The notes under the pieces are model-generated. The model was given only the letters and a program-made list of their open reading frames with translations. It ran no database searches and had not been told where the DNA came from. Shown one piece after another: positions 5,420-28,011 of a DNA stretch of 35,081 nucleotides. This DNA comes from a bacterium (GTDB taxonomy: Bacteria > J088 > JAWLBW01). Made by a program: the position numbers and the translations under genes. Numbering within the stretch: position 1 is the stretch's first letter; each line of letters opens with the position of its first letter. Location of the stretch: contig JAWLHK010000002.1 in the NCBI GenBank assembly GCA_041690355.1, forward strand, positions 248,001 through 283,081, given 5' to 3'.

Positions 5420-5441
5420 TGATATAATGAATGACGATTCA
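5420..5441 (+). promoter_or_regulatory. Extended -10 promoter of the thiolase gene with an overlapping palindrome
   Basis: TGATATAAT (5420-5428) is a perfect TGn-TATAAT. TGAAT-GACG-ATTCA lies at 5428-5441. Confidence 0.6.
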
Positions 5442-5490
5442 GTCGGTAGCCTCGCGCGCCGAACCACAGACCTGGGAAAGGAAGACCACC

Positions 5491-6642
5491 ATGTCCGAAG
5501 CCGTCATTGTCGACTTCGTTCGCACCGCGATGGGAAAACGCAAGGGGAGCCTGAGCGGCGTCCATCCCGTCGATCTCGCCAGCCTGCCGCTCAAGGCACT
5601 TCTCGAGCGCACGAAAATCGATCCGGCGCTCATTGAAGATGTCATCATGGGCTGCGTGACCCAGACGGGAGAGCAGGGGATGAACATCGCGCGTGGCGCC
5701 GCGCTGGCCGCCGACCTGCCCATCGAAGTCCCGGGCGTCGTGCTGAACCGTTTCTGCGGTTCGGGGCAGCAGGCCGTCAACCAGGCGGCTCAGGCCGTGC
5801 TCTCGGGCGCGCAGGACGTCGTGGTGGCCTCGGGCGTCGAGCACATGACGCGCGCGCCGATGGGTTCGGATGCGCCCGGGCCGCTCGGCTCGCGCATGAC
5901 CGATCGCTTTCCCGATCTCGTGCCGCAGGGCCTGTCGGCCGAGATGATCGCCGATAAGTGGGGCTTCAGCCGCGAACGCCTCGATGAGTTCGCCTACGAA
6001 AGCCAGATGAAGGCGAAGAAGGCGTGGGACGAGCAGCGCTTCGCGAAGGAGATCGTGCCCGTCGCCGTCAAGAACGAAGACGGCTCGACGCGGATGTTCG
6101 AGAAGGACGAGCACTTTCGCCCGTCGACGACCCCCGAGGGGCTCGCTGCGCTGCAGCCCGCCTTCAAGCCCGAGGGCAAGATCACGGCCGGCAACAGCTC
6201 GGGCATCGTCGACGGCGCCGCTGCCGTTCTCATCGTGTCGGACGCCAAGGCCAGAGAGCTCGGCCTCAAGCCGCGCGCCCGCATCGTGGCGCAGGCGGTG
6301 GTGGGCAGCGAACCGGTCATCATGCTCACGGGCCCCATTCCCGCTTCGCAGAAGGTGCTCAGCAAGGCCGGCCTCAAGGCGCATGATATCGACCGCTGGG
6401 AAATCAACGAAGCCTTCGCCTCGGTTCCTCTCGCCACCATGCATGATCTGGACATCGATCCCGCCAAGGTCAACGTCTGGGGCGGCGCCATCGCCCTCGG
6501 TCATCCGCTGGGGGCCAGCGGGGCGCGCCTGATCGGCACGCTCGTCAACCAGCTCGAGCAGGACAACCTGCGCTATGGGCTCGCGACGATGTGCATCGGC
6601 TATGGGATGGGCATTGCGACCATCGTCGAACGCATCGGGTGA
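5491..6642 (+). CDS. Thiolase (acetyl-CoA C-acyltransferase, FadA/AtoB family)
   Basis: Start ATG at 5491 (MSEAVIVDFVRT). Catalytic motifs NRFCGSG, NEAF, GHPLGASG and CIGYGMG. Confidence 0.95.
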   Translation: MSEAVIVDFVRTAMGKRKGSLSGVHPVDLASLPLKALLERTKIDPALIEDVIMGCVTQTGEQGMNIARGAALAADLPIEVPGVVLNRFCGSGQQAVNQAAQAVLSGAQDVVVASGVEHMTRAPMGSDAPGPLGSRMTDRFPDLVPQGLSAEMIADKWGFSRERLDEFAYESQMKAKKAWDEQRFAKEIVPVAVKNEDGSTRMFEKDEHFRPSTTPEGLAALQPAFKPEGKITAGNSSGIVDGAAAVLIVSDAKARELGLKPRARIVAQAVVGSEPVIMLTGPIPASQKVLSKAGLKAHDIDRWEINEAFASVPLATMHDLDIDPAKVNVWGGAIALGHPLGASGARLIGTLVNQLEQDNLRYGLATMCIGYGMGIATIVERIG

Positions 6643-12558: not shown

Positions 12559-13221
12559 ATGCCTCGTGTTTTCTGCCTTCCGACCTCGTTCTTCGTCGGA
12601 ATCCTCTCGGCGGCGACGTTGTTCGGCTGCAGCCAGTTTCAAGCACCGCAGCCCGAACAGCCCATCCAGTTCAGCCACGAGATTCACGTCACCCAGAACA
12701 ACATCCCCTGCCTGTACTGCCACCAGACGGCCGACCGCTCTGAAGTGGCTTCGGTGCCATCGACCGGCACGTGCATGAATTGCCACAAGGCGATTCCCGG
12801 GCAGAACATGCCGCAGGAAGTCGAAAAGGTTCGCGGCTACTGGGAACGTCAGGAGCCGATCCCGTGGAACCGGGTTCATGACGAACCGGACTTCGTTTAC
12901 TTCACCCACGAACGGCACGTGAAGTACTTCACCGACTGCTTCTCGACGCACCCCTCAACCGAGTGGGATAAGTGCGCGCTGAAGGAAGTCGATACCCCGC
13001 TGCCCGCCGTCGGACAGCAGAATCCGGTCATCGCTTCGCAGATGATGACCTGTGCGCAGTGTCACGGTCCGGTCTGGACCTTCACAACCGGCAAGCGCGT
13101 CGAGCCGCTCAGCATGGGCTGGTGCGTCAGCTGCCACGAGAAGCGCCTGGCCCTCGCCCCCGTAGAAGAGCAGCCCCTGATTCGCGGGCGCATGCTCGAC
13201 TGCTGGACCTGTCACAAGTAA
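12559..13221 (+). CDS. actA: Alternative complex III pentaheme cytochrome c subunit
   Basis: Five CxxCH motifs (CLYCH, CMNCH, CAQCH, CVSCH, CWTCH), plus QPIQFSHxxH, PDFVYFxH and LSMGWC. First gene of the operon. Confidence 0.9.
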   Translation: MPRVFCLPTSFFVGILSAATLFGCSQFQAPQPEQPIQFSHEIHVTQNNIPCLYCHQTADRSEVASVPSTGTCMNCHKAIPGQNMPQEVEKVRGYWERQEPIPWNRVHDEPDFVYFTHERHVKYFTDCFSTHPSTEWDKCALKEVDTPLPAVGQQNPVIASQMMTCAQCHGPVWTFTTGKRVEPLSMGWCVSCHEKRLALAPVEEQPLIRGRMLDCWTCHK

Positions 13222-13257
13222 AGATTCTGAATTTCACTTTCTGAGTTAGGCATACCA

Positions 13258-16221
<2,964 letters not shown>

Positions 16222-16242
16222 TCCGCGAGGACTGACACTCTC

Positions 16243-17571
16243 ATGGTTACCGAACTCACATACGATCAGGTAAACCGGGACGTACTCCGGACGCTCGAAA
16301 AGCCGCGCCCGTACTACTTCCTGGGCCTGGCCATCACGGCGTTCATGTTCGCCCTCGGCGCCTGGGCCGAAGCGCAGAACATTCAGTACGGCCTCGGTAT
16401 GTCGGGCTACATGCACCCGGTTTACTGGGCCTTCTACATCACCGACTTCGTCTTCTGGGTCGGCATCGGTCACGCGGGCACGCTCATCTCGGCCATCCTC
16501 TATCTCTTCCGCGCGCGCTGGCGCATGAGCGTCTACCGCGCCGCCGAAGCGATGACGGTGTTCGCCGTCGCGACCGCCGGTCTCTTTCCCATCCTGCACG
16601 TCGGCCGCCCCTGGCTCGCTTACTGGCTGTTCCCGTATCCGAGCGAACGGCAGCTGTGGCCGAACTTCAAGAGCCCGCTCGTGTGGGACGTGTTCGCCAT
16701 CTCGACGTACGCGACCGTTTCGACCGTGTTCCTCTTCATCGGTATCATCCCCGACGCCGCCGCCGCGCGCGATCGCGCGACCGGCATCCGCAAGCTGATC
16801 TACTCGATCTTCGCGTTCGGCTGGCTCGGCTCGAGCGATCAGTGGCGCCACTACATGAAGAGCTACATGTTCTTCGCCGCTTTCGCGACCCCGCTCGTGC
16901 TCTCGGTGCACTCGGTCGTGTCCTGGGACTTCGCCATGTCCATCGTTCCGGGCTGGCACTCGACCATCTTCCCGCCGTACTTTGTCGCCGGCGCCATTCT
17001 GTCGGGCGTGGCCATGGTCATCACGATCCTGATTCCGCTGCGCAAGCTGATGGGACTCGAGCACATCATCACGATGTGGCACTTCGAAGCGCTCGCCAAG
17101 CTGCTGCTGCTGACGTCGACGATCGTCGGTTACGCCTACGCGACCGAGTTCTGGAACGCCTGGTACAGCGGCAGCAAATACGAGTCCGGTCACTTCCTGT
17201 ACCGCGCCTTCGGACACTTCGCGCCCACCTTCTGGTTCGGCATGGTGTTCTGCAACTCGCTGCTCCCCCAGCTGTTCTACTTCCGCGGTGTGCGCACGAA
17301 CCTGTGGATGCTCTTCATCATCTCGATCTTCGTGAACATCGGCATGTGGCTCGAACGCTTCATCATCATCGTGACCGCGCTCAGCCACGAGTTCATGCCG
17401 TACAGCTGGTCCGACGAATATCAGCCCAGCCACATCGACTGGATGGTGACCATCGGCAGCTTCGGCTGGTTCTTTACGCTCTTCCTCATCTTCGCCAAGC
17501 TGTTCCCCATGGTCAGCATCAACGAAGTCAAGGAAATCCTGCGCCCGCCCGTTAAGGAGTCTCACAAATGA
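16243..17571 (+). CDS. actC: Alternative complex III quinol-binding subunit (NrfD/PsrC family)
   Basis: FVFWVGIGHAGTLISAIL, RAAEAMT, HVGRPW, SPLVWDVFAISTY, SVHSVVSWDF and GMWLERF. Confidence 0.95.
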   Translation: MVTELTYDQVNRDVLRTLEKPRPYYFLGLAITAFMFALGAWAEAQNIQYGLGMSGYMHPVYWAFYITDFVFWVGIGHAGTLISAILYLFRARWRMSVYRAAEAMTVFAVATAGLFPILHVGRPWLAYWLFPYPSERQLWPNFKSPLVWDVFAISTYATVSTVFLFIGIIPDAAAARDRATGIRKLIYSIFAFGWLGSSDQWRHYMKSYMFFAAFATPLVLSVHSVVSWDFAMSIVPGWHSTIFPPYFVAGAILSGVAMVITILIPLRKLMGLEHIITMWHFEALAKLLLLTSTIVGYAYATEFWNAWYSGSKYESGHFLYRAFGHFAPTFWFGMVFCNSLLPQLFYFRGVRTNLWMLFIISIFVNIGMWLERFIIIVTALSHEFMPYSWSDEYQPSHIDWMVTIGSFGWFFTLFLIFAKLFPMVSINEVKEILRPPVKESHK

Positions 17572-18083
17572 GCTCGCGTCTTCTTCTCGGGGTCTATCCC
17601 CATTTCGACGAGTTCCTCGAAGCGACCCGTAAGCTCCGCAAGGAGGGGTTTCGCGACCTGGTTCTCTTTTCGCCGACGGCCCGCCATGAACTCGAAGAGG
17701 TTCTCGAAGAGGGCCCGAGCGTCGTGCGCTGGTTCGTGCTGGTCGGCGCGCTGCTCGGCTGCCTGAGCGGCTACGTCATGACCGTGTGGATGAACCAGGA
17801 CTGGCCCATCATCGTCGGCGGCAAGCCCATCGGCGACTGGGACCTCTCGGGTACGCAGCCGTACGTCGTGCCGATGTTCGAGCTGACGATTCTGCTCGGC
17901 TCGATCTTCAATCTGGTCGGCCTGTTCGTCAATGCGCGCCTGCCGCGCATCCGCGTCGAAGCCTACGACCCGCGGTTCTCCGACGACCATTTCGGCATTC
18001 AGGTGCGCACGAGCGAAGACAAGATTGCCGCTGCCGAAGCCATTCTCTCGAAGAACGGCGCCAAGGAGGTCAAGCGTGTTTAA
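17568..18083 (+). CDS. actD: Alternative complex III subunit D (DUF3341)
   Basis: Two TM segments, WPIIVGGKP, PMFELTIL and YDPRFSDDHF; ATGA overlap with actC. Confidence 0.9.
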   Translation: MSSRLLLGVYPHFDEFLEATRKLRKEGFRDLVLFSPTARHELEEVLEEGPSVVRWFVLVGALLGCLSGYVMTVWMNQDWPIIVGGKPIGDWDLSGTQPYVVPMFELTILLGSIFNLVGLFVNARLPRIRVEAYDPRFSDDHFGIQVRTSEDKIAAAEAILSKNGAKEVKRV

Positions 18084-18612
18084 GGGTTATCACGTCGCGC
18101 TGGTCGGCCTGCTGGCCGTCACCGGCTGCGCCAAGGCCCCCGAGGTATCCGAGGGGCTCAACTACGAGAAATCGTCAATTTCGCTGGAAATGTTCGACCA
18201 GCCTGCGATGAAGCCGCAGGAAGGCTGGTACGGCCGGCAGCTCACCTATCCGACCGACACGGTTCCGGTTTCGGGCAAAGAGGCGCCGACGACCGAAGAA
18301 GAGGCCGACGCCCTGGCGAACCCGATCCCGGCTGACGAAGCCTCGCTGGCCGCCGGTAAGTTCTCCTTCTCGAAGAACTGTGCGGCCTGCCACAGCATGG
18401 ACGGAAAGGGGCAGAACCCCGTCGCCGAAAAGCTGATGGCCAACGGCATGCCGATCTGGGATATCACCCTGACGGCGCCCGGGCGCAGCGACGGCTACAT
18501 CTATCGGCTCATTCGCCACGGCGGGATGAACATGCCGGCCTACGGCCCGCAGACCAACCCCGACGAACGCTGGCACATCGTTAACTACCTTCGGAGCTTG
18601 ACGCCGCAATGA
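18076..18612 (+). CDS. actE: Alternative complex III monoheme cytochrome c lipoprotein
   Basis: Start reassigned to GTG at 18076 (AAGGAGG RBS). Lipobox AVTG-C, MFDQP..KPQE, a single CAACH, and MPAYG..RWHIVNYLRSL. Confidence 0.9.
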   Translation: MFKGYHVALVGLLAVTGCAKAPEVSEGLNYEKSSISLEMFDQPAMKPQEGWYGRQLTYPTDTVPVSGKEAPTTEEEADALANPIPADEASLAAGKFSFSKNCAACHSMDGKGQNPVAEKLMANGMPIWDITLTAPGRSDGYIYRLIRHGGMNMPAYGPQTNPDERWHIVNYLRSLTPQ

Positions 18613-19985
18613 GCACCCTGAGTCTTGCCAATCTGGCCGGTCGCAAAACGCGCCCGATTTCCGGCACCACGAAGGCAATCTTCCTGGTGGCGATCGTTGC
18701 GGCCATCATCGCCTTCGTCGTGGGGGTCGCGTCCGACAAGAAATCGATCTGGACGGCCTTTCTTACGAACTACATGCTGTTCACGCAGTTCGGCATGGTG
18801 GGTCTCGTGTTCGCGGCGATCGCGAACATCACCAATTCGACCTGGATGCGTCCGATGAAGCGCATCGCCGAAGGGTTCACGACCGTTCTGCCGGTTTCTC
18901 TGATTCTACTTTTCGTGCTCTTCATCGGCCGGGATAACCTCTGGCACTGGGCCCACGTGGGACATGAAGTGCATGCCGAAGCCCCCGCGGCCGAGCAGCC
19001 TGAATCGACGGCGAAGAAGGACCTGCCCGGGATTGCCGTCCACTACGAAGCGGACCCGGATGGATTTCTCCTCCCGCATGACCCGGATAACCACCACGGA
19101 CCGCACCTCGCCCACGTGAAGCACTGGTGGCTGAACGAGCCGTTCTTCTGGGGACGCAGCTTCGCCATCGTCATCATCTTCAACCTGCTCGCCTTCTTCT
19201 ACCGCCGGCGCTCGATGCGCCCCGACCTGGGAGCCGTCGCCGAACTCGAAGGGCGCAAGATTGACGGTTGGCAGGGGGTCGAGAAGGAAGTCGAGAAGAG
19301 CCAGCACACGCAGAAGATTCTGGCCCCCATCGTCGGCCTGATCTATGCGATCGGCTGGAGCATTCACTCCTTCGACCTGCTGCTCAGCATCGACTGGACG
19401 TTTCCCGACGCCATGTTCGGCGCCTGGCAGTTCACGACGGGACTGCTCGCGCTCTGGGCGCTTACGAACCTGTTCATGAGCTACTATCGCAAGAAGGCGT
19501 ATCTCGACGATCTGATTACCGGCCAGCAGTACCACGACGTGGGCAAGCTCATGTTCGGCTTCGGCATCTTCTGGACCTACATCATGTGGTCGCAGTACCT
19601 TCCGATCTGGTACGGCAACCTGCCCGAAGAAGCGCCTTACGTGCTGCTTCGCGTGAACGACCAGCCCTGGCGCTCGGTGAGCATTCTGCTGCCGTTCATC
19701 ATCTGGCTCATCCCGTTCTGGACGCTCATGGCCGTGAAGGCCAAGAAGAACCCGGTCATTTCGGGGGCGATGGCGCTGCTGATTCTCGCGGGCATCTGGC
19801 TCGAGCGGTACGTGCTCTCGACGGCCACGCTGTATCCGAGGGAAGTTCCGCTCGGCATCCTCGATATCGTGCTCACCGCCGGTTTCGTGGGCGGATTCCT
19901 GCTGCTCGTGACCAGCTTTCTCGGGAAGAACCCGATCCTTCCGGTTACGGACCCGTACCTGAAGGCGGGCGGCGACCATCACTGA
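18609..19985 (+). CDS. actF: Alternative complex III subunit F
   Basis: Polytopic membrane protein with WLNEPFF, HDVGKLMFGF and WSQYLPIWYGNLPEE; ATGA overlap with actE. Confidence 0.92.
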   Translation: MSTLSLANLAGRKTRPISGTTKAIFLVAIVAAIIAFVVGVASDKKSIWTAFLTNYMLFTQFGMVGLVFAAIANITNSTWMRPMKRIAEGFTTVLPVSLILLFVLFIGRDNLWHWAHVGHEVHAEAPAAEQPESTAKKDLPGIAVHYEADPDGFLLPHDPDNHHGPHLAHVKHWWLNEPFFWGRSFAIVIIFNLLAFFYRRRSMRPDLGAVAELEGRKIDGWQGVEKEVEKSQHTQKILAPIVGLIYAIGWSIHSFDLLLSIDWTFPDAMFGAWQFTTGLLALWALTNLFMSYYRKKAYLDDLITGQQYHDVGKLMFGFGIFWTYIMWSQYLPIWYGNLPEEAPYVLLRVNDQPWRSVSILLPFIIWLIPFWTLMAVKAKKNPVISGAMALLILAGIWLERYVLSTATLYPREVPLGILDIVLTAGFVGGFLLLVTSFLGKNPILPVTDPYLKAGGDHH

Positions 19986-20007: not shown

Positions 20008-20040
20008 GCAACGGCGCCCTCGGGCGCCGTTGCCTTTTTC
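20008..20040 (+). terminator. Intrinsic terminator of the act operon
   Basis: GCAACGGCGCC-CTCG-GGCGCCGTTGC followed by CTTTTTC. Confidence 0.85.
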
Positions 20041-20065
20041 AGGCATCGGCTGCGGTCAGACTCGA

Positions 20066-20097
20066 ACAGAAAACGGCGCCTTGCGGCGCCGTTTCTG
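20066..20097 (-). terminator. Intrinsic terminator of the convergent minus-strand operon
   Basis: Minus strand reads AAACGGCGCC-GCAA-GGCGCCGTTT followed by TCTGTT. Confidence 0.8.
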
Positions 20098-20117: not shown

Positions 20118-20528
20118 TTACTTGGCGGTCTTCTTCTTCGCATTCTTCGCAGGCGTGCGCGCTGCCGAAGTCCGCGCGGCCGTCTTGGTGGCGGCCGCGG
20201 TCTTCACGGATTTGGCGCGGGGCGCAGCGGCAGGCTTGCGGCGGGGAGGGCCGTCGGCAGAGTCACGCAGGGTGGTGAGCACCTGCTGCTCGAGTTCCTG
20301 GCGCTGTGACGAATTCAGGCGCGCGCCACGGCTGAGCAGATTGAGAACATAGTTCTCCATCCCGTTCTCGTTTCCCTTGCCGCTGGCCTTGTCGAGCGCT
20401 TCGCGCACGGCCTGGCGCACCATGGCTTCGGGCGTAATGCCGCGCGCTCGCGCGACGGCCTCGATGGCCTTCGCCTGTTTGCCGGTGAAACGAACATCAA
20501 AGGTATAAACGGGGGCTTGCTTCTTCAT
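20118..20528 (-). CDS. Ribbon-helix-helix-like protein with a Lys/Ala-rich histone-like tail
   Basis: N-terminus has a beta strand (YTFDVRFT) and two helices (KAIEAVARARGITPEAMVRQAVREAL), a CopG/RHH pattern. C-terminal tail KPAAAPRAKSVKTAAATK...KKKTAK. Confidence 0.7.
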   Translation of the reverse strand: MKKQAPVYTFDVRFTGKQAKAIEAVARARGITPEAMVRQAVREALDKASGKGNENGMENYVLNLLSRGARLNSSQRQELEQQVLTTLRDSADGPPRRKPAAAPRAKSVKTAAATKTAARTSAARTPAKNAKKKTAK

Positions 20529-20568
20529 GGATCACCCGGGAAAATCTGTGCGCCGCTCGCGCGGAATT

Positions 20569-21657
20569 CTATCCGAGGAACGTGTTGCGGCGCTGCTGCA
20601 CGAGATCACTCACCATGTTCTGGATGGTGGCGCGCAGTTCTTCATTCAGTGTATTGACAAGTATGTCATCTTCCCATGAACGGGAAGAAAAGTCACCCAA
20701 GTCGAAGGTCTCTCCGAAACGGATATACCACTTCGACGGCAGCGGAAGGACCCCCAGCGGGCCGAGCCACGGGAAAAGCGGCGTGAACGGAAAATACGGC
20801 ACCCGCAGCGCGTTTGCGATGAACCCGCTCGTGAAAAGAATCGGATAGGTTTCTTCGGCCCCGAGTACCGCAACCGGAATCACGGGGGCCCCGGTCTTCA
20901 TGGCCAGGCGCACCGTGCCGCCGCGCCCGAAACGAGCCAGATGATACCGATCGCGAAACGGCTTGGCGACACCCTTGAGTCCCTCGGGAAAAGAACCGAC
21001 GAGCTCGCCGGCATCGACAAGGCGGCGCGCGTTGTCCTGGCTTCCGCGCACCATCCCGAGACGGGTCAGCACATAGGACAGAAACGGAAGCTTCGTGAAC
21101 CACTCTTCGAGCAGGAAGCGCACGGGGCGACCCGACGGGTGCAGCTCCTGAACGGCGTACTGGACCATCCAGGCGTCGAAGGGCAGGAAACCGGAATGGT
21201 TGGCAATCAGCAGACCCGGTCCCGCGGACGGTACGTTCTCGAGGCCCTCGACCTCGATGCGCCAGTAACGATAGAAGAGAAAATCAGCCAGTGGCCGCAG
21301 GCGTTCGATGTATTCCTCGTTGCGCCCGAAATCATCGACGCTGCTCGCAGGCACGCCGACGAAGGTGCGCCGCAGCGTCTGGCGCAGGCGGCCCGGGCGC
21401 AGAGCCGAAACGGTGCTGCGCAGCAGGTGAAACAGTTCGCCGACGAGTGAACGGTCTTCCTCGGACAGGCGGCCCAGATCCTTCTGCACGGTGCGTTCGA
21501 GCTCGCGCAGGTAATCATCAATCACGGTCGCGTTGCTCGCGACGTCGCGTTCGCTGAGCCCTCGCAGCTGCTTGACGAGAATGGCGGCGCGGTCGTCGGC
21601 AAGCGACCGTACGGCGTTCTCGAGCCGGTCGAGGCGGCTGGTCGTCTCCCGGGTCAT
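20569..21657 (-). CDS. Lysophospholipid/glycerolipid acyltransferase (PlsC superfamily, resembling mycobacterial Rv0502) with a helical N-terminal extension
   Basis: DDFG, NHSGFLPFD, FPEG, FGRGG and PLPSKW motifs; ATGA overlap with the ParA gene. Confidence 0.88.
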   Translation of the reverse strand: MTRETTSRLDRLENAVRSLADDRAAILVKQLRGLSERDVASNATVIDDYLRELERTVQKDLGRLSEEDRSLVGELFHLLRSTVSALRPGRLRQTLRRTFVGVPASSVDDFGRNEEYIERLRPLADFLFYRYWRIEVEGLENVPSAGPGLLIANHSGFLPFDAWMVQYAVQELHPSGRPVRFLLEEWFTKLPFLSYVLTRLGMVRGSQDNARRLVDAGELVGSFPEGLKGVAKPFRDRYHLARFGRGGTVRLAMKTGAPVIPVAVLGAEETYPILFTSGFIANALRVPYFPFTPLFPWLGPLGVLPLPSKWYIRFGETFDLGDFSSRSWEDDILVNTLNEELRATIQNMVSDLVQQRRNTFLG

Positions 21658-22427
21658 GCGGGCACGGCCCCCTTGCTGCGATAGAGCTCGGCGGCAAACT
21701 GCGCGAGCATCTGCGCCCCCGAGCTTCGCGGCGCGTACTCCCAGATGGTCTGGCCGTGGCTCTGCGCCTCATCGATCTTCACGTTGAACCCGATGACCGT
21801 CTTCGAGACCGTGGCGCCGAAATTCGACCGCAGACGCTCGAGGATTTCGTTGGCCAGGCGCGTGTTGCGGAACAGAGTGGGTACGACGGCGCTGACACGC
21901 AGCGTGCGCCGCCCGTAGGACTCACGCACCTGTTCGACCGTCTCGATGATTTCGGCGCAACCGTCGAGCGCGAAGAACGTCATGTTGACGGGTATGACGA
22001 TTTCGTCGGCGGCCACCATGATGTTGATGGTCAGGGCGCCGAGCGACGGCGGACTGTCGATGATGACGAAGTCATAGCCCTTCAAGCCGGTGAGCTTCTG
22101 CTGCAGCCGGTGATTGCGGTCTGACTCGCCCGCCAGCAGCATGGGCACGTCGATGAGCCGCTTGTTGGCGACGACGAGGTCGAGCCCGGGAATGCGCGAG
22201 GAGATGACGGCGTCGCTGACGCTGACGTTCGGATCGGCCAGCAGATCGAGGGTCGTCGTTTCGACCTCGCGCACGTTGATGCCGAGCGACTTGCCCACCT
22301 GGCCCTGCGGATCCATGTCGATGAGCAGCACGCGTTTCTTCTTGAGTGCGAAGAAGGCAGCCGTGTTCACGGCGAGCGTCGTCTTGCAGCTGCCGCCCTT
22401 TTCATTGATGAAAGCGATACGCCGCAT
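21654..22427 (-). CDS. Orphan ParA/Soj-family ATPase
   Basis: True start is ATG at 22427 (MRRIAFINEKGGSCKTT). Motifs LIDMDPQG, IIDSPPSLG and NVKIDEAQSHG. No parB in the window. Confidence 0.9.
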   Translation of the reverse strand: MRRIAFINEKGGSCKTTLAVNTAAFFALKKKRVLLIDMDPQGQVGKSLGINVREVETTTLDLLADPNVSVSDAVISSRIPGLDLVVANKRLIDVPMLLAGESDRNHRLQQKLTGLKGYDFVIIDSPPSLGALTINIMVAADEIVIPVNMTFFALDGCAEIIETVEQVRESYGRRTLRVSAVVPTLFRNTRLANEILERLRSNFGATVSKTVIGFNVKIDEAQSHGQTIWEYAPRSSGAQMLAQFAAELYRSKGAVPA

Positions 22428-22429
22428 AT

Positions 22430-23458
22430 TCAATCCGCCAGGGTGTCGATGAGGCGGACGTCGCGCAGGCGCTGCATGCCGGCATACGCCTCGATGGTGT
22501 CGCGTGTCGAATGGCGAGGCTGGAAACCAAGTTCGCGTACCGCCTTGTCGCCGTCGGCGATCCAGAGGAACCGGATGTAGTCGAGATGCGCCCCGGGCGC
22601 GGGCGAGAGGCCCGCCATCCAGGCCGCCTGCACGAGCGGATAAGCGACAGGATGCGCGACCGGAAACGTAACCCGGCCGGCAAGCTTGATGATCGTCGAA
22701 AGCGGCAGCACGCCCGGACCGGTGATGTTGAACGCGCCCGAGACCTCGCGCTCTAGCGCAAGCTCGAACGCGTCGAGCACGTCGTTTTCGTGTACGAGCT
22801 GCTGCAGCGGATCGTAGCCGAGGAGCGTCATGCACGCCGGGCGGCGCAGATACTCGGTTACCAGGTTGCGCACGGTGGGGCCGAGAATCGACGCCAGGCG
22901 CAGAACCGTGACGCTCGTTTCGGGGTGCTTGCGCGCGTGGCGCGCCAGCAGCTCTTCGACCTCTGCCTTGTCGCGAACGAACCGGTAGTGGCGCGGCGGC
23001 CGCAGCGGCATGTCTTCGGTGAGAAAGTTCGGATTCGAGGGATGGGCGCCGTACACCATGGTCGACGACCGCACAATCAGCTTGCGCAGTTTGTGGCGCG
23101 CGGCGGCGTGCAGCAGGTTCAGCGTTCCGATGACCTCGAGCTCGTGGGCGAAAGTCGAGTTGCGCGACGGGTTGGCCTGAAAGGCCAGGTGAAGCACGGT
23201 GTCGACCTGTTCGCGATCGAGTATGTCGGCGATCAGGGCATCCGCCGTCGGCTGGGTTAGGTCGACCTTGTAGAACTTGTTCGCCTTCGCAAGCTGCTTG
23301 GGGCGTTTGATGTCCATGACCACGATGGGCCACTCGTCGCGCGCCTGCAGCCGGCGCAGCAGCCGCTGACCGATGAAGGTGTCGGCGCCCGTGATGGCGA
23401 TGGTCGGAGTGTTGCGTGCCGTTTTGCGCGCACGCGGCGCCTTCTTACGTTCGGCCAT
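22430..23458 (-). CDS. Atypical extended SDR / NAD-dependent epimerase family protein (resembling Rv0501/GalE2)
   Basis: ITGADTFIG, VDTVLHLA, VIGTLNLL, SSTMVYGA, LLGYDP..Q.VHE.D and RELGFQP. Confidence 0.85.
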   Translation of the reverse strand: MAERKKAPRARKTARNTPTIAITGADTFIGQRLLRRLQARDEWPIVVMDIKRPKQLAKANKFYKVDLTQPTADALIADILDREQVDTVLHLAFQANPSRNSTFAHELEVIGTLNLLHAAARHKLRKLIVRSSTMVYGAHPSNPNFLTEDMPLRPPRHYRFVRDKAEVEELLARHARKHPETSVTVLRLASILGPTVRNLVTEYLRRPACMTLLGYDPLQQLVHENDVLDAFELALEREVSGAFNITGPGVLPLSTIIKLAGRVTFPVAHPVAYPLVQAAWMAGLSPAPGAHLDYIRFLWIADGDKAVRELGFQPRHSTRDTIEAYAGMQRLRDVRLIDTLAD

Positions 23459-23484
23459 GGTTCGTGACGAGAACGCCGCGGCGT

Positions 23485-23823
23485 TCAGGCCTCGGCCTTG
23501 GGCGCACGTTTGCGGGGCGCTGCCGCGGGCTTGGCTGCGACGTTGGTGAGCGTTTCGACCTTGTCGGCGAGGTCTTCAATCTGCCGCTCCAGGCTGCGAA
23601 CCTGCTTGCGCAGCTTATCGAAATCTTCGCGCGTGGGCTGGTTGACCAGCGACAATGCGAGCGCCACGTTCTTGTCGAGCGTCGCTTTGAGATTCTGCGT
23701 GCGCATGAGGGTGCGGGCTACGGTGGCGCTGACCTTTTCATTGGCCATCAGCTCGTTGAGCACCTCGGTCATGCGCTCTTCACCCATGGCCATCAACTTC
23801 TTCACAAACTTCTGATCGTTCAC
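23485..23823 (-). CDS. Small phasin/PhaF-like helical protein with an AAKP tail
   Basis: GTG start at 23823 (GGAGG RBS). Coiled-coil motif 'LVNQPTREDFDKLRKQVRSLERQIEDL' and tail AAKPAAAPRKRAPK. Confidence 0.65.
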   Translation of the reverse strand: MNDQKFVKKLMAMGEERMTEVLNELMANEKVSATVARTLMRTQNLKATLDKNVALALSLVNQPTREDFDKLRKQVRSLERQIEDLADKVETLTNVAAKPAAAPRKRAPKAEA

Positions 23824-23866
23824 GGAGCCTCCGGCTGCTGTCGGACGGTAGGAAAAAGCAAAGAAG

Positions 23867-23904
23867 ATCATACTCATTCGTGACGCGGCCCGTCAAGCGT
23901 CACG
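23867..23904 (-). promoter_or_regulatory. Sigma70 promoter of the five-gene operon with an inverted repeat around the -35 box
   Basis: Minus strand TTGACG-N18-TATGAT. CGTGACGC-N10-GCGTCACG lies at 23879-23904. Confidence 0.65.
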
Positions 23905-24100: not shown

Positions 24101-24418
24101 TACGAACCTCCCGGGCGCTGCAGGGCAGGGCGGCCGCGCAACACCGCCAGGCCGGCCCCGCGTCTGCGGCGCGGTTACAGGTTGACTACGAAGTGCCGCC
24201 CGGACTACGGCGTGCGCCTTCATCGATCATTCTGCACGGGCCGGGCCCGGATTGTTTAGAGTGGAGTGCCGCCCGGCCGCCCCCGGCCCCATCGCCCGGC
24301 GGCGGGACGAACGCCGGGAAAACGAGAAGCATTGAAGCGACGGATGTTGCCTGCTACCGTATGGGCGGAGCAGGCGCGACACGCCGCGCGACAACTTCGA
24401 CAGGATGGGAGCTCGACG

Positions 24419-25099
24419 ATGAAAACTGCGATGCGATATTCACTGCTGCTCGTTCTTGCGCTTCTGGCGTCGGCCTGCCAGCGCGAGAAAAGCGAAACCT
24501 CTGGTTCGGTTGCCGCGCAGGCCCCCGAGGCTCCGGCAGAATCCGATGCCGAGGACGATGGCGCCGAGGCCGAAGATGTCTCGGTGAACGTCACGCTCGA
24601 TCCGGCAGAGCTGCGCACGGGCCAGCAGGTACGCGCCGTGATCGCGCCGGTCACCCGTGGGGTCGTCTTCCGGTTCGCCTGGTTCATCGACGGGAACGAG
24701 GTGCCCGGTGAGTACGATGAAGTGCTCGGCGGCGATTTCGTGGCCAAGGGCAAGGAGATTCACGTCGAAGTCACCCCGTCGGTGGACAACGAAGACCGCG
24801 GCACGGTGCGCAGCGCCACCGTCACCGTGGGCAATACGCCGCCGGATGTGCCTGGTTCCGACGTGATCGAGGCAGACGAATCGCGCGTCGTTTTCCAGAT
24901 TCGCGCTGAAGACGTCGACGGCGACGCGCTGCGGTACAAGTTGGTCGAGGGACCCCTCGGGATGAAGATAGACGGCTCGAGCGGCCGCATCGAGTGGATG
25001 GTCCCGGCAGGCTTCTCCGGGTCGGCAAAGTACGTCGTCAATGTCGGCGACGGCGATGCCGAGACGCAACTCGAAAGCACCGTCGAGCGGCAGCAGTAA
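24419..25099 (+). CDS. Lipoprotein with Ig-like (He_PIG/cadherin-like) domains
   Basis: ATG at 24419 (GGGAG RBS). Lipobox LASA-C; NTPP, AEDVDGDALRYKLVEGPLGMKID and GRIEW. Confidence 0.8.
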   Translation: MKTAMRYSLLLVLALLASACQREKSETSGSVAAQAPEAPAESDAEDDGAEAEDVSVNVTLDPAELRTGQQVRAVIAPVTRGVVFRFAWFIDGNEVPGEYDEVLGGDFVAKGKEIHVEVTPSVDNEDRGTVRSATVTVGNTPPDVPGSDVIEADESRVVFQIRAEDVDGDALRYKLVEGPLGMKIDGSSGRIEWMVPAGFSGSAKYVVNVGDGDAETQLESTVERQQ

Positions 25100-25258: not shown

Positions 25259-25807
25259 ATGGTAATTGACTTCCGCGAAATTACGGTGGCGGGGCTCGAC
25301 GTCGCATTCGACGAGCCTCTGGTTTGGCTTGACGACCGGCAGTCTGATGCGCTCCGCAGCCTGCATCGCTTTCCCGAACCGTTCCATGTCGAAGCGCATC
25401 TCGAGCGCTCGCAGGACACGGTTCTCGTCCACGGACGATACGCGGGCGTGGTGCAGACCGAGTGCGTACGCTGCCTGAAGGAGTTCACCACTCCGGTGGA
25501 GGAAGAGTTTCGCCTGACCCTGCTCCCGCATACGCACGCGTCTGCGGTCGAGGAGAAGGAGAAGGAAGTCGAGGAAGAGGATGTCGACCTGGCCTATTTC
25601 GATGAGGAAAAGGTCGACCTTACTCGAGTCGTTTCGGAGCAGGTCATCCTGTCGCTTGACCTGTATCCGCGATGCCGGCCGGATTGCCGGGGGCTCTGTC
25701 CCGTGTGCGGGAAGAACCTCAACGAAGATTCCTGCCGGTGCGAAGAAAACAGCACCGACACGCGTTTGTCGGCTTTGAAACAGTTCAAACTGGCGAAAGA
25801 CCAGTAG
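25259..25807 (+). CDS. yceD: YceD/DUF177 protein
   Basis: ECVRCL, C..DCRGLCPVCGKNLN..C.C and D.RLSAL; directly upstream of rpmF. Confidence 0.95.
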   Translation: MVIDFREITVAGLDVAFDEPLVWLDDRQSDALRSLHRFPEPFHVEAHLERSQDTVLVHGRYAGVVQTECVRCLKEFTTPVEEEFRLTLLPHTHASAVEEKEKEVEEEDVDLAYFDEEKVDLTRVVSEQVILSLDLYPRCRPDCRGLCPVCGKNLNEDSCRCEENSTDTRLSALKQFKLAKDQ

Positions 25808-25818
25808 GAGAGAGGCCC

Positions 25819-26001
25819 ATGCCTTTACCGAAACGCAAGCATTCGAAGACAGTCCAGCGTCTGCGCCGGACCCACTACAAGCTGGAGTCCCCCAATTCGG
25901 GCGAGTGCCCGAAGTGCGGCGAACCGGTTGCTCCGCACCGCGCGTGCGGGAACTGCGGTAACTACCGCGGTCGTCAGATCCTGAAGGCCAAGGAATCCTG
26001 A
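25819..26001 (+). CDS. rpmF: 50S ribosomal protein L32 (zinc-ribbon type)
   Basis: MPLPKRKHSK..RRTH..CPKCG..PHRACGNCGNYRGRQI; AGGAG RBS. Confidence 0.96.
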   Translation: MPLPKRKHSKTVQRLRRTHYKLESPNSGECPKCGEPVAPHRACGNCGNYRGRQILKAKES

Positions 26002-26096
26002 GTTCCGCTCCGGGTGCCTGGGGTGGCCATGCATCCTCCCTACTCGTTGCTTTCCCCGGCGCCGGCCGATAATCCGGCGCCGCGGAGGTGTTCCCG

Positions 26097-27029
26097 GTGA
26101 CGGTCGCCGTCGTATTTCCCGGTCAGGGCTCGCAGCGCATCGGCATGGGCGTCGACCTTGCCGCGTCGCACCCGTCTGCCCGGAAGTGCTTCGAAGAAGC
26201 ATCCGAGGCGCTGGGCTACGACATGCTGGCGCTGTGCGGCGAGGGACCCGAAGAGCGTCTTCGTTTGACTGAATATACCCAGCCGGCCATTCTCACCGTC
26301 AGCGTCGCGGCCTATCGGGTCTGGCATGAACACGCCGGCATCGAGCCGGCGGCGGGCGCCGGGCATTCGCTGGGGGAATACAGTGCGCTGGTCGCCGCCG
26401 GCAGCCTTGGTTTTGCCGATGCCGTTCGGCTGGTCAGACTTCGCGGCCGCGCCATGCAGGAGGCCGTTCCCGTCGGCCGCGGCAAGATGGCGGCGGTGCT
26501 CAACCTGGACTCCGAGAAACTAGACGAAGTCTGCGTCGTGGCTGCCGAGGGCGACGTTGTATCGGCAGCCAATCTGAACGCGCCGGGGCAGATCGTGATC
26601 TCCGGCGGCGCCGATGCCGTCGATCGCGCGGCGAAAGCGGCCCTTGCCGCCGGCGCCCGCCGCGTACTGCCGCTCGACGTCAGCGCGCCGTTCCACTGCG
26701 CGCTCATGCAGCCGGCTGCAGAGCGTCTCGAACAGGCGCTCGCCGACGTTCCCCTCGCGCCGCCGCGCTTCCCCGTCTACTCCAACGTCACGGCCGCGCC
26801 GCACGCCCCCGAGCCGGCCGGTATCCGCGAGGCGCTCGTGCGCCAGGTTTGTGCGCCGGTGCGCTGGGAAGAGACGGTGACGGCGCTCGCCGCCGCCGGC
26901 ATCACGCGAACCGTCGAGTGCGGACCCGGCAAGGTACTGAGCGCGCTCATCAAGCGCGTCGCCGGCGACATTTCCCTTTCCAACATCGAGACGGTTGCCG
27001 ATCTCGATGCCTGGGCCGTCGGCCGATGA
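26097..27029 (+). CDS. fabD: Malonyl-CoA:ACP transacylase
   Basis: FPGQGSQ, TQPA, GHSLGEY and SAPFH; GTG start at 26097 after GGAGG. Confidence 0.96.
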   Translation: MTVAVVFPGQGSQRIGMGVDLAASHPSARKCFEEASEALGYDMLALCGEGPEERLRLTEYTQPAILTVSVAAYRVWHEHAGIEPAAGAGHSLGEYSALVAAGSLGFADAVRLVRLRGRAMQEAVPVGRGKMAAVLNLDSEKLDEVCVVAAEGDVVSAANLNAPGQIVISGGADAVDRAAKAALAAGARRVLPLDVSAPFHCALMQPAAERLEQALADVPLAPPRFPVYSNVTAAPHAPEPAGIREALVRQVCAPVRWEETVTALAAAGITRTVECGPGKVLSALIKRVAGDISLSNIETVADLDAWAVGR

Positions 27030-27772
27030 GCCGGTTGAGCGGCCAGATTGCCCTCGTCACCGGGGGCGGGCGGGGAATCGGACGCGCCGTCGCCCGCCGA
27101 CTGGCGCGCGAAGGTGCGCACGTCGTCGTCAATTACGTCAGCGGTGAAGGGGCCGCACGCGAGACCGTCGAGGCGATACGCGCCGACGGCGGTACGGCAG
27201 ACACCGCCGGATTTGACGTCGCCGATGCCGCCGCGGTCAAGGCCGGCGTCGACGGCGTTCTGGGCAACCACGGCCGCATCGACATTCTCGTCAACAATGC
27301 CGGCGTCGTGCACAACGGGCTGCTCATGCGCCTGAAGGATGACGACATCGAGCACGTGCTCGGCGTGAACCTGCGCGGTACGATCCACTGCACGCGCGCC
27401 GTGACCGCGGGCATGGTCAAACGCCGGCAGGGACGCATCGTGAACATGACGAGCGTCGTCGCCGCCACCGGCAACGCGGGGCAGTCGATCTATGCCGCCA
27501 GCAAGGCGGGGGTCGTCGGGTTCACCCGCGCCACGGCGCGCGAACTTGCGCCGCGCTCGATTACCGTCAACGCCGTCGCGCCCGGTTTTATCGATACCGA
27601 CATGACGGCAAGCTTGCCAGACGCAACGCGGCAGGATATCGTGGAGAGCATACCGCTCGGTCGCAGCGGTACGGCGGAGGAAGTCGCCGGCGCCGTGCTG
27701 TTTTTCTGCCTGCCTGAATCCGCTTACATCACCGGTCACGTATTGGACGTGAACGGTGGCATGCACATGTGA
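27026..27772 (+). CDS. fabG: 3-oxoacyl-ACP reductase
   Basis: [26 protein letters not shown] and VNGGMHM; start at 27026 overlaps the fabD stop. Confidence 0.95.
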
Positions 27773-27780
27773 GGATGTGG

Positions 27781-28011
27781 ATGACCCTCGAAGAGAAAGT
27801 CAAAAAGATCATTGCCGATACCCTCTCGAAGAACGAGGGCGAAATCGCCCTGGACGCTTCGCTCACCGAAGACCTGGGCGCCGATTCGCTCGAGATCGTC
27901 GAGCTCGCCATGGCCATGGAAGAGGAGTTCAGCATCGAAATTCCCGATGAAGACATCGAGAAGATCAGCACCGTCAAGGACATCGTCGACTACATCGCCG
28001 AACACAGGTAA
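27781..28011 (+). CDS. acpP: Acyl carrier protein
   Basis: [20 protein letters not shown]. Confidence 0.97.

Follow-up and report, generated by a model that had tools for sequence, protein, structure and literature searches.

A conserved orphan ParA in a small operon with an acyltransferase gene: a candidate positioning module for a lipid cargo in bacteria

What might a ParA-type ATPase be moving when its gene lies in the middle of an operon that also encodes an acyltransferase? This question is raised by a five-gene operon in a 35,081-nt stretch of bacterial DNA (contig JAWLHK010000002.1, positions 248,001 to 283,081, assembly GCA_041690355.1), which is referred to here as the window; the source genome is designated G000. 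The operon encodes, in this order, a small phasin-like protein (g1), an atypical short-chain dehydrogenase/reductase (SDR), the ParA, the acyltransferase (AT) and a small protein with a basic tail (g5). ATPases of the ParA/MinD family position chromosomes, plasmids, carboxysomes, chemoreceptor arrays and division sites, and to our knowledge storage inclusions are provided with passive DNA tethers only, namely PhaF, PhaM, PhaH, AlgP and MLDS. The answer that we favor, with the scales about evenly balanced, is that the operon is a ParA/MinD-type positioning module that serves lipid storage or lipid synthesis and not DNA. The features of the operon are as follows:

23896..23867, minus strand: sigma-70-like promoter site, TTGACG-18-TATGAT, with 10/12 consensus matches (a consensus match only)
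23485-23823 (112 aa from GTG 23823) or 23485-23877 (130 aa from ATG), minus strand: g1, phasin-like protein
22430-23458, minus strand: atypical extended SDR with NAD-dependent epimerase/dehydratase fold (PF01370)
21654-22427, minus strand: orphan Soj-like ParA ATPase, 257 aa (AAA_31)
20569-21657, minus strand: AT with PlsC/glycerol-3-phosphate acyltransferase (GPAT) fold, 362 aa (PF01553); its first 4 bp overlap the end of the ParA gene
21328-21657, minus strand: helical N-terminal extension of the AT, approximately residues 1-110, delimited from the model and by comparison with ParA-less copies
20118-20528, minus strand: g5, with a weak ribbon-helix-helix (RHH) N-terminal domain (RHH_1 match below the cut-off) and a basic tail
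20064..20093, minus strand: terminator-like GC hairpin (20072-20093) followed by a T-rich run, 3' of g5, from reading of the sequence

The ParA looks like a working ATPase of the Soj type. It matches the Pfam families AAA_31 (E 7.8e-47) and CbiA (E 2.8e-19) and aligns end to end with Soj of Thermus thermophilus (1wcv, E 1.4e-41). Nine residues (K10, G11, G12, K15, T16, T17, D37, D39 and D124) are the same in all 55 aligned sequences of its subfamily; these include the signature Lys of the deviant Walker A motif KGGxxKT (K10), the DxD pair (D37/D39) and the Walker B Asp (D124), and the motif check over the 55 sequences places the protein among the deviant Walker A ATPases. All five ParA sequences from the phylum have R187 and R190, with R187 nearly invariant in the subfamily alignment as well, and the two residues flank the position that aligns with the 'GRT' arginine of T. 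thermophilus Soj, in the stretch that corresponds to the loop with the DNA-binding arginine of Soj.

The preliminary description of this DNA had pointed to an orphan ParA in mid-operon with no parB in the window, and the rest of the genome bears this out. No parB was found in the window, and the sole ParB_N match in the genome (C9:103719-103988) lies on another contig, directly beside a second ParA gene (C9:104120-104863) whose product is 37% identical to the window ParA. Because the only ParB of the genome adjoins the other ParA, the window ParA is an orphan, lacking the cognate ParB of a Soj-type ParABS system. In a quick maximum-likelihood ParA tree, a long branch separates its relatives from the genome's own Soj, and by this tree and its gene context it can be assigned to a distinct subfamily with conserved neighbors.

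The linkage of this ParA to its neighbors extends well beyond the window. Within the phylum, for which four other species genomes were compared (G001-G004), the order SDR-ParA-AT was found in 4/4, with ParA orthologs that are 45-73% identical. A g1 homolog precedes the SDR gene in G002 and G004; the contigs of G001 and G003 stop short of the position of g1, and these two genomes have their g1 homologs on other small contigs. A metagenome scan with the ParA alignment retrieved 454 relatives, the best 80 of which (45-62% identity) were used, with local profiles built from our own alignments. At loci with at least 1 kb of downstream sequence, ParA is followed by the AT gene in 30/53 and by a convergent PhaR-like gene in 10/53; at loci with at least 450 bp of upstream sequence, g1 lies upstream in 17/69 and an SDR gene abuts ParA in 5/69. 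When both flanks were available, a gene for g1, SDR, AT or a PhaR-like protein was found beside ParA in 48 of the 50 loci, the exceptions being L030 and L089.

Several gene orders recur. In arrangement (a), g1 and ParA are often accompanied by a convergent PhaR gene, two divergent genes for ArsA-like ATPases with a tetratricopeptide repeat (TPR) gene, and a zinc-ribbon protein; arrangement (b) is ParA-AT-SDR, with the SDR gene after the AT gene in 15/19 testable loci; and arrangement (c) is g1-SDR-ParA-AT, as in the window. At L039, arrangement (c) is followed by PhaR and an ArsA-like gene, so that this locus joins arrangements (a) and (c). Arrangement (b) forms one group in the quick ParA tree (support 91), whereas arrangement (c) is scattered with four changes, and the scatter of the SDR-ParA-AT order argues that the link is not one inherited accident. 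As a side observation, one or two ArsA/Get3-like ATPase genes are divergent from g1-ParA at L037, L038, L080, L081, L026, L027 and L049, accompanied by a TPR gene at all of these loci but L049.

In a sample of 401 species genomes, in which the subfamily was called at profile E <= 1e-62, ParAs of this kind were found in 23, five in the phylum and 18 in 14 other families. The 18 out-of-phylum genomes, with GC contents from 0.38 to 0.76, contain 19 loci, at which AT is present in 12/19, the order SDR-ParA-AT in 8/19, g1 in 6/19 and PhaR in 10/19; a gene for AT, SDR, g1 or PhaR lies by ParA in 17 of the 19, the exceptions being the locus of G175 and a 4.4-kb contig of G312. A scan of the species genomes with AT patterns returned only six loci, four of them in the known phylum relatives, the peptide patterns being too specific. 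The preliminary description had named the absence of ParA beside these genes in relatives as a reason to abandon its proposal; ParA was kept there in 4/4, 48/50 and 17/19 cases. The out-of-phylum genomes are kin to various degrees, so that their counts are not independent events. A functional link of the ParA to the AT, SDR, g1 and PhaR genes, as judged from gene neighborhoods, is well supported by conservation.

The tie between ParA and the AT is visible at two levels. The 4-bp overlap of the ParA and AT genes in the window is found again in the arrangement (b) loci L045, L047, L084 and L052, and the open frame of ParA-linked ATs extends back to the ParA stop. In addition, the N terminus of ParA-linked ATs is lengthened by a helical extension of about 100 residues (helix pLDDT 41-79 in the model); their Pfam domain begins only at residue 133-157 (5/5 scanned), and in most arrangement (b) loci the extension contains an LGxDPF motif. 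The extension is absent from ParA-less SDR-AT pairs, i.e., those of L014 and L015, the second pairs of L036 and L077, and a pair on contig C21 of the genome itself. By this comparison of sequences, the ParA-AT overlap and the N-terminal extension track with ParA. Homology of the extension to g1 was considered and rejected (hhalign probability 0.9%). The pair on C21 (C21:25688-27549, equivalent to L099:5688-7549) consists of an AT gene followed by an SDR gene with a 4-bp overlap, and its AT has 294 aa and no long N-terminal extension. At two arrangement (b) loci, a gene for a patatin-like phospholipase follows shortly after ParA-AT(-SDR) (L047:9392-10900 and L092:8568-9827), which is another neighbor from lipid metabolism.

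The AT itself matches the Acyltransferase family PF01553 (E 2.5e-17, 63.4 bits against a cut-off of 23), and a search with its model (pLDDT 80) by Foldseek returned PlsC (5kym, E 8.9e-7) as the best hit, followed by PatA and GPATs. The motifs NHxGxLPxD and FPEG are invariant in 14 sequences of the family. The His aligns with that of PlsC, but the Asp follows two residues later, so that the 14/14 sequences read HX6D and not the canonical HX4D. A match to the DGAT2/MGAT family PF03982 stays below its 22-bit cut-off (16.1 bits, E 0.0055); such matches at E <= 0.05 recur in 7/14 family members, the best reaching 6.8e-4.

These properties of the AT are also what an alternative reading draws upon. 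BcsQ is a ParA/MinD-family part of the cellulose synthase complex, and in a BcsQ-like manner the ParA may place or regulate a membrane-bound lipid-synthesis complex of AT and SDR, with the AT extension binding ParA and g1 acting as a coiled-coil scaffold. We consider this possible but rather unlikely. It would agree with an AT fold closest to PlsC, PatA and GPAT, with ParA/AT coupling and a ParA-specific AT extension in all gene orders, with the occurrence of ParA-AT in the lack of both g1 and PhaR at 26/50 metagenome loci, with weak CBP_BcsQ matches in several subfamily members, and with the location of the operon next to yceD-rpmF-fabD-fabG-acpP. However, the ParA is Soj-like along its whole length (the CBP_BcsQ Pfam match of the window ParA has an E of 7.4e-4, as compared with 1.4e-41 for Soj), and its sequence, read by eye, has no obvious C-terminal amphipathic membrane helix. 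Moreover, g1-ParA occurs with no AT nearby at 14/50 metagenome loci and in G266, G210, G361 and G086, and the recurring PhaR-like and phasin-like neighbors belong to families known from storage granules.

A positioning module for a lipid cargo, the reading that we prefer, gains from the nature of g1. The AlphaFold2 model of g1 (pLDDT 79) consists of three helices, the third of which is a coiled coil and is the only one to exceed shuffled sequences in amphipathicity (reached by 1/500), and the protein ends in a short basic tail, AKPAAAPRKRAPKAEA. In the g1 family, 23/25 members match the Phasin family PF05597 at E <= 0.01 (best 4.5e-7), and 8/25 match the PhaE model (PHA_synth_III_E). As in PhaF, the homologs in G002 (173 aa, locus L005) and G004 (207 aa, locus L004) end in a long tail that is AKP/KK-rich and resembles histone H1; shorter tails are present in L037, L038 and L049. 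The family is large and comprises 318 clusters at 50% identity with E <= 1e-10. The Protein Atlas lists only unnamed clusters for g1, with Acidobacteriota, Candidatus Binatota and Actinomycetota as taxon leads (leads only), and a profile search of the PDB sequences returned generic coiled coils only. Taken together, the phasin likeness of g1 is weak but consistent. Because ParA has phasin-like and PhaR-like neighbors, the cargo may well be a hydrophobic inclusion.

Is this inclusion, then, a granule of polyhydroxyalkanoate (PHA)? In that case g1 would be a PhaF-like phasin, PhaR the regulator and ParA an active spacer, with AT and SDR as passengers. The Phasin and PhaE matches of the g1 family would be explained, as would the PhaR-like genes, which lie beside ParA at many loci and are present in 5/5 phylum genomes, and a class-III-PhaC-like protein (about 220 bits) that is likewise found in 5/5 phylum genomes. 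Nevertheless, class I and class III PhaC models were exceeded at their curated cut-offs in 0/23 carrier genomes, i.e., no canonical PHA synthase was found where a PhaF-type nucleoid-tethering phasin would call for one. Where PHA synthases have their catalytic Cys, the lipase box of the PhaC-like protein from G000 reads GWSMGG, with Ser at this position. In addition, the AT/SDR linkage (12/19 and 30/53 loci) is too frequent for passengers. A PHA-granule cargo is thus disfavored, by the missing synthase in 23 carriers and by the Ser lipase box, and we regard it as improbable.

The PhaC-like protein, an alpha/beta hydrolase encoded on the minus strand at C2:132537-133721 (L098:14537-15721), scores about 220 bits against a TIGR01836 cut-off of 365. 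Its homologs in G001-G004, G053, G220, G108 and G028 score approximately 200-246 bits; the protein accompanies the SDR-ParA-AT arrangement in eight carriers and an AT homolog in G028. The protein may act in the same lipid pathway as an esterase or lipase. The PhaR-like gene of the genome lies about 43 kb from the operon (C2:226465-227082, equivalent to L096:1465-2082), near a gene for a zinc-ribbon/DUF3426 protein, and matches PHB_acc_N with 100 bits and TIGR01848 with 94 bits, the latter below the cut-off of 109. The same pairing of PhaR and a zinc-ribbon/DUF3426 protein flanks ParA in arrangement (a) metagenome loci, and the ancestral neighborhood appears to have been split in G000. On balance, the evidence favors a lipid structure over a polyester granule and leaves the choice between a storage body and a membrane lipid pathway undecided.

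The remaining two genes of the operon are less uniform. The SDR matches the Epimerase family PF01370 (E 4.7e-28, 98.6 bits), and the earlier characterization as atypical was confirmed: its glycine motif reads TGxxxFxG instead of GxxGxxG, and the spacing of the Tyr and Lys aligned to YxxxK is altered, two residues being inserted in comparison with solved epimerases, so that the dinucleotide and catalytic motifs of extended SDRs (GxxGxxG and Ser-Tyr-Lys) are not present in canonical form. Neither residue is conserved among ParA-linked SDR relatives, with Asp in place of Tyr in L018 and L025 and L, M or R at the position of the catalytic Lys in six. The SDR of the ParA-less pair L014 keeps YxxxK.

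Concerning g5, a match to RHH_1 (E 0.0045, 17.3 bits) falls below the cut-off of 20.5 bits and is followed by a tail of 42 residues that is rich in A, K, P and T and has a net charge of +14; the Protein Atlas lists unnamed clusters and weak RHH families. The preliminary description had counted this RHH/AK-tail protein as a part of the operon, which does not hold for the conserved core: a homolog was found in only one of the four phylum relatives (G001), and g5 is therefore lineage-specific. The features of g5 have a bearing on a further alternative, namely that the operon is the remnant of a plasmid-like type Ib partition cassette, with g5 as a ParG-like centromere binder and the lipid genes linked by chance. 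Small ParAs with RHH partners are known from plasmids (ParF/ParG), and the weak RHH match and the DNA-binding-like basic tail of g5 would suit such an origin. However, the AT gene separates g5 from ParA, the g5 homolog is limited to 1/4 relatives, no iteron-like repeat array was found in or around the operon, and the chromosomal neighborhood on the side of the alternative complex III (ACIII) operon is common to G001. Furthermore, linkage to AT, SDR, g1 or PhaR is kept in 17/19 and 48/50 loci. With neither an RHH partner directly beside ParA nor the repeat centromere of such a cassette recognized, and with the conservation data coming close to refuting it, this origin is highly improbable.

How might a positioning module for a lipid cargo operate? 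From the gene content, motifs and linkage that were observed, we infer physical interactions, nucleoid binding and a cargo as follows. ParA would bind ATP, dimerize and coat the nucleoid. The adaptor would be g1, with a three-helix body, a coiled-coil third helix and a basic tail that is long and histone-H1-like in relatives. The AT, translationally coupled to ParA and equipped with the ParA-linked N-terminal extension, would ride on the cargo, which would be a hydrophobic lipid body or an enzyme patch that builds one. Stimulation of the ParA ATPase by g1, by the AT or by both on the cargo would then lead to spacing and inheritance of the cargo, in a diffusion-ratchet scheme like that of McdAB. 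In the manner of PhaF and PhaM, the basic tail of g1, joined in the family of the window by that of g5, may also touch DNA directly. For the atypical SDR, a structural or regulatory role alongside the AT is probable, and g5 would be a lineage-specific DNA-binding accessory. A bolder version is put forward tentatively: that this is the first ATP-driven ParA/MinD-type partition and spacing system for bacterial lipid storage bodies, with the AT extension and the PhaF-like DNA-tail protein as cargo-side partners and a PhaR-like regulator that would sense the body, in a module that reaches across 15 or more bacterial families without PHA synthases.

It should be noted that several observations weigh against this proposal. 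The organism is known from an assembly alone. The arrangement (b) loci have no g1, and g1 is thus not a universal adaptor. The g1 protein of the window scores 24.7-25.3 bits (E 2.5e-5) against PF05597, below the 28.8-bit cut-off, and the match is confined to profile positions 52-125; the phasin-like character ascribed to it earlier therefore stands for the family, as a weak and consistent likeness in 23/25 members, but not for the window protein by the family's own threshold. Its tail comprises only 16 residues with a net charge of +4, and the amphipathicity of helices 1 and 2 is not significant, as 13% and 42% of shuffled sequences match or exceed their hydrophobic moments. The fold comparison that the preliminary description had recommended for the 112-aa protein brought no support, as Foldseek found no relative of the g1 model in the PDB at E <= 0.001. 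As the nearest solved fold of the AT is PlsC, a membrane phospholipid enzyme, its product may be an ordinary membrane lipid. On the side of the proposal, wax ester synthase/diacylglycerol acyltransferase (WS/DGAT) exceeded its cut-off in 3/5 phylum genomes and 8/18 other carriers (11/23), as compared with 0/40 non-carriers, a contrast that is suggestive only, being confounded by phylogeny and genome size because the non-carrier set is non-random and consists largely of smaller genomes from other lineages; this set comprised G005-G045 with the exception of G014, which was dropped for a weak g1-like match. Against the proposal, WS/DGAT was not found in the other 12/23 carriers, some of which are 97-98% complete. 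The earlier suggestion that the operon makes neutral-lipid bodies could thus not be upheld in that form, given an AT fold nearest to PlsC, a DGAT2 match below threshold and the carriers in which WS/DGAT was not found.

The layout of the operon agrees with the preliminary description, which had listed five co-oriented genes with gaps of 26, 2, -4 and 40 bp between one promoter and one terminator, and a small protein of 112 aa. The open reading frame (ORF) calls place all five ORFs on the minus strand, and spacings of 26 bp, 2 bp, a 4-bp overlap (ATGA) and 40 bp were read from the sequence. The promoter region contains two sigma-70-like sites where shuffled sequence would lead one to expect 0.5, including the site at 23896..23867. 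As that site overlaps the ATG at 23877, the GTG at 23823, which has GGAGG four bases upstream, is the likelier start of g1 and results in the 112-aa form. The hairpin at 20072-20093, which was also listed by the repeat analysis, is absent with its T-rich run from the automatic terminator scan, which reported only the neighboring hairpin at 20008-20033; the latter is the end of the convergent ACIII operon.

The ACIII operon (window 12559-19985, plus strand) converges on the ParA operon and encodes a multiheme cytochrome, a molybdopterin/FeS subunit, an NrfD-like protein, ActD, cytochrome c and a second membrane subunit; an ActF-like gene is a neighbor of the operon in G001 as well. On the other flank lie yceD-rpmF-fabD-fabG-acpP (window 25259-28011). 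The genes plsX and fabH usually sit between rpmF and fabD; both are missing there in the window, where the rpmF-fabD gap is 86 bp. In L019 and L022, too, a yceD homolog is located near g1-ParA, at a distance of about 4 kb. A 277-aa ORF with no Pfam match (window 24266-25099) is located between the operon promoter and yceD; within it, a lipoprotein-like signal sequence (LLASAC) starts at an internal Met. A thiolase of the acetyl-CoA acetyltransferase family (Thiolase_N E 2.5e-77) is encoded at window 5431-6642, 14 kb from the operon.

If the proposal is true, the ParA family would gain a new class of cargo, the inheritance of bacterial lipid stores would become accessible through a handle of its own, and the AT would be an unusual case of an enzyme that bears a ParA-linked element; if instead the ParA serves a membrane-bound complex of AT and SDR, the operon would be a new example of spatially controlled lipid synthesis. 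A 2025 review states that passive DNA tethers (PhaM, PhaF, PhaH and AlgP), which lack ParA homology, are all that is known for polyhydroxybutyrate (PHB) and polyphosphate granules, and asks whether ATP-driven granule spacing exists (PMC13052382). A widespread, uncharacterized ParA subfamily with phasin-like, PhaR-like and AT/SDR companions would be a concrete candidate for the missing ATP-driven spacer. A literature search, which was not exhaustive, for ParA together with PHB granules, lipid droplets, polyhydroxyalkanoate or McdA found no such system, and a term search of a bioRxiv paper on lipid-droplet inheritance (10.1101/2020.05.18.103093) did not return ParA.

Among known systems, the ParA-less SDR-AT pairs (L014, L015, C21 and the second pairs of L036 and L077) are similar in that an extended SDR gene overlaps or abuts a gene for a PlsC-family AT, but they have no ParA, and their ATs are 270-294 aa in length as compared with 362 and lack the N-terminal extension. 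The preliminary description had likened the SDR-AT pair to mycobacterial Rv0501-Rv0502; in a list of PlsC homologs, Rv0502 figures only as conserved and uncharacterized (PMC10593935). BcsQ resembles the window ParA as a ParA/MinD ATPase inside a biosynthetic operon, and weak CBP_BcsQ matches are shared by the window ParA and its relatives; however, the window ParA matches BcsQ far more weakly than Soj.

With regard to granule tethers, the review states that the N-terminal end of PhaF and PhaM binds the granule and the histone-like C-terminal end binds DNA (PMC13052382). PhaF of Pseudomonas putida, PhaM of Cupriavidus necator and PhaH of Caulobacter share with the g1 family a helical phasin-like N-terminal part and a DNA-binding-type tail rich in K, A and P, which is clear in L005 and L004. 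They differ in that g1 of the window stays below the PF05597 cut-off, has a tail of 16 residues and occurs in carriers with no recognizable PHA synthase, and in that the g1 gene is coupled to ParA, an association that, according to the review, is known for no PHA granule (PMC13052382). MLDS of Rhodococcus jostii is described as a small protein that links neutral-lipid droplets to genomic DNA (PMC5504291). A similar droplet-to-DNA tether role is proposed here for g1 or g5; however, no ATPase is described with MLDS, and the likeness is one of proposed role.

A parallel in layout is offered by McdA/McdB, in which, as in the window, an extra ParA-type ATPase with no ParB lies beside a small non-homologous partner and a non-DNA cargo is indicated. 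The window ParA is Soj-like and probably binds the nucleoid, in keeping with the McdAB mechanism as outlined in the review (PMC13052382). No carboxysome family was among the Pfam matches of the window or of related loci, and no search aimed at McdB or carboxysomes was made. The partner in the window, a phasin-like protein with a basic tail, has no relationship to McdB; in contrast to the McdAB system as a whole, the cargo of the window ParA is probably lipidic, and an AT enzyme is translationally coupled to the ParA and carries its own ParA-linked extension.

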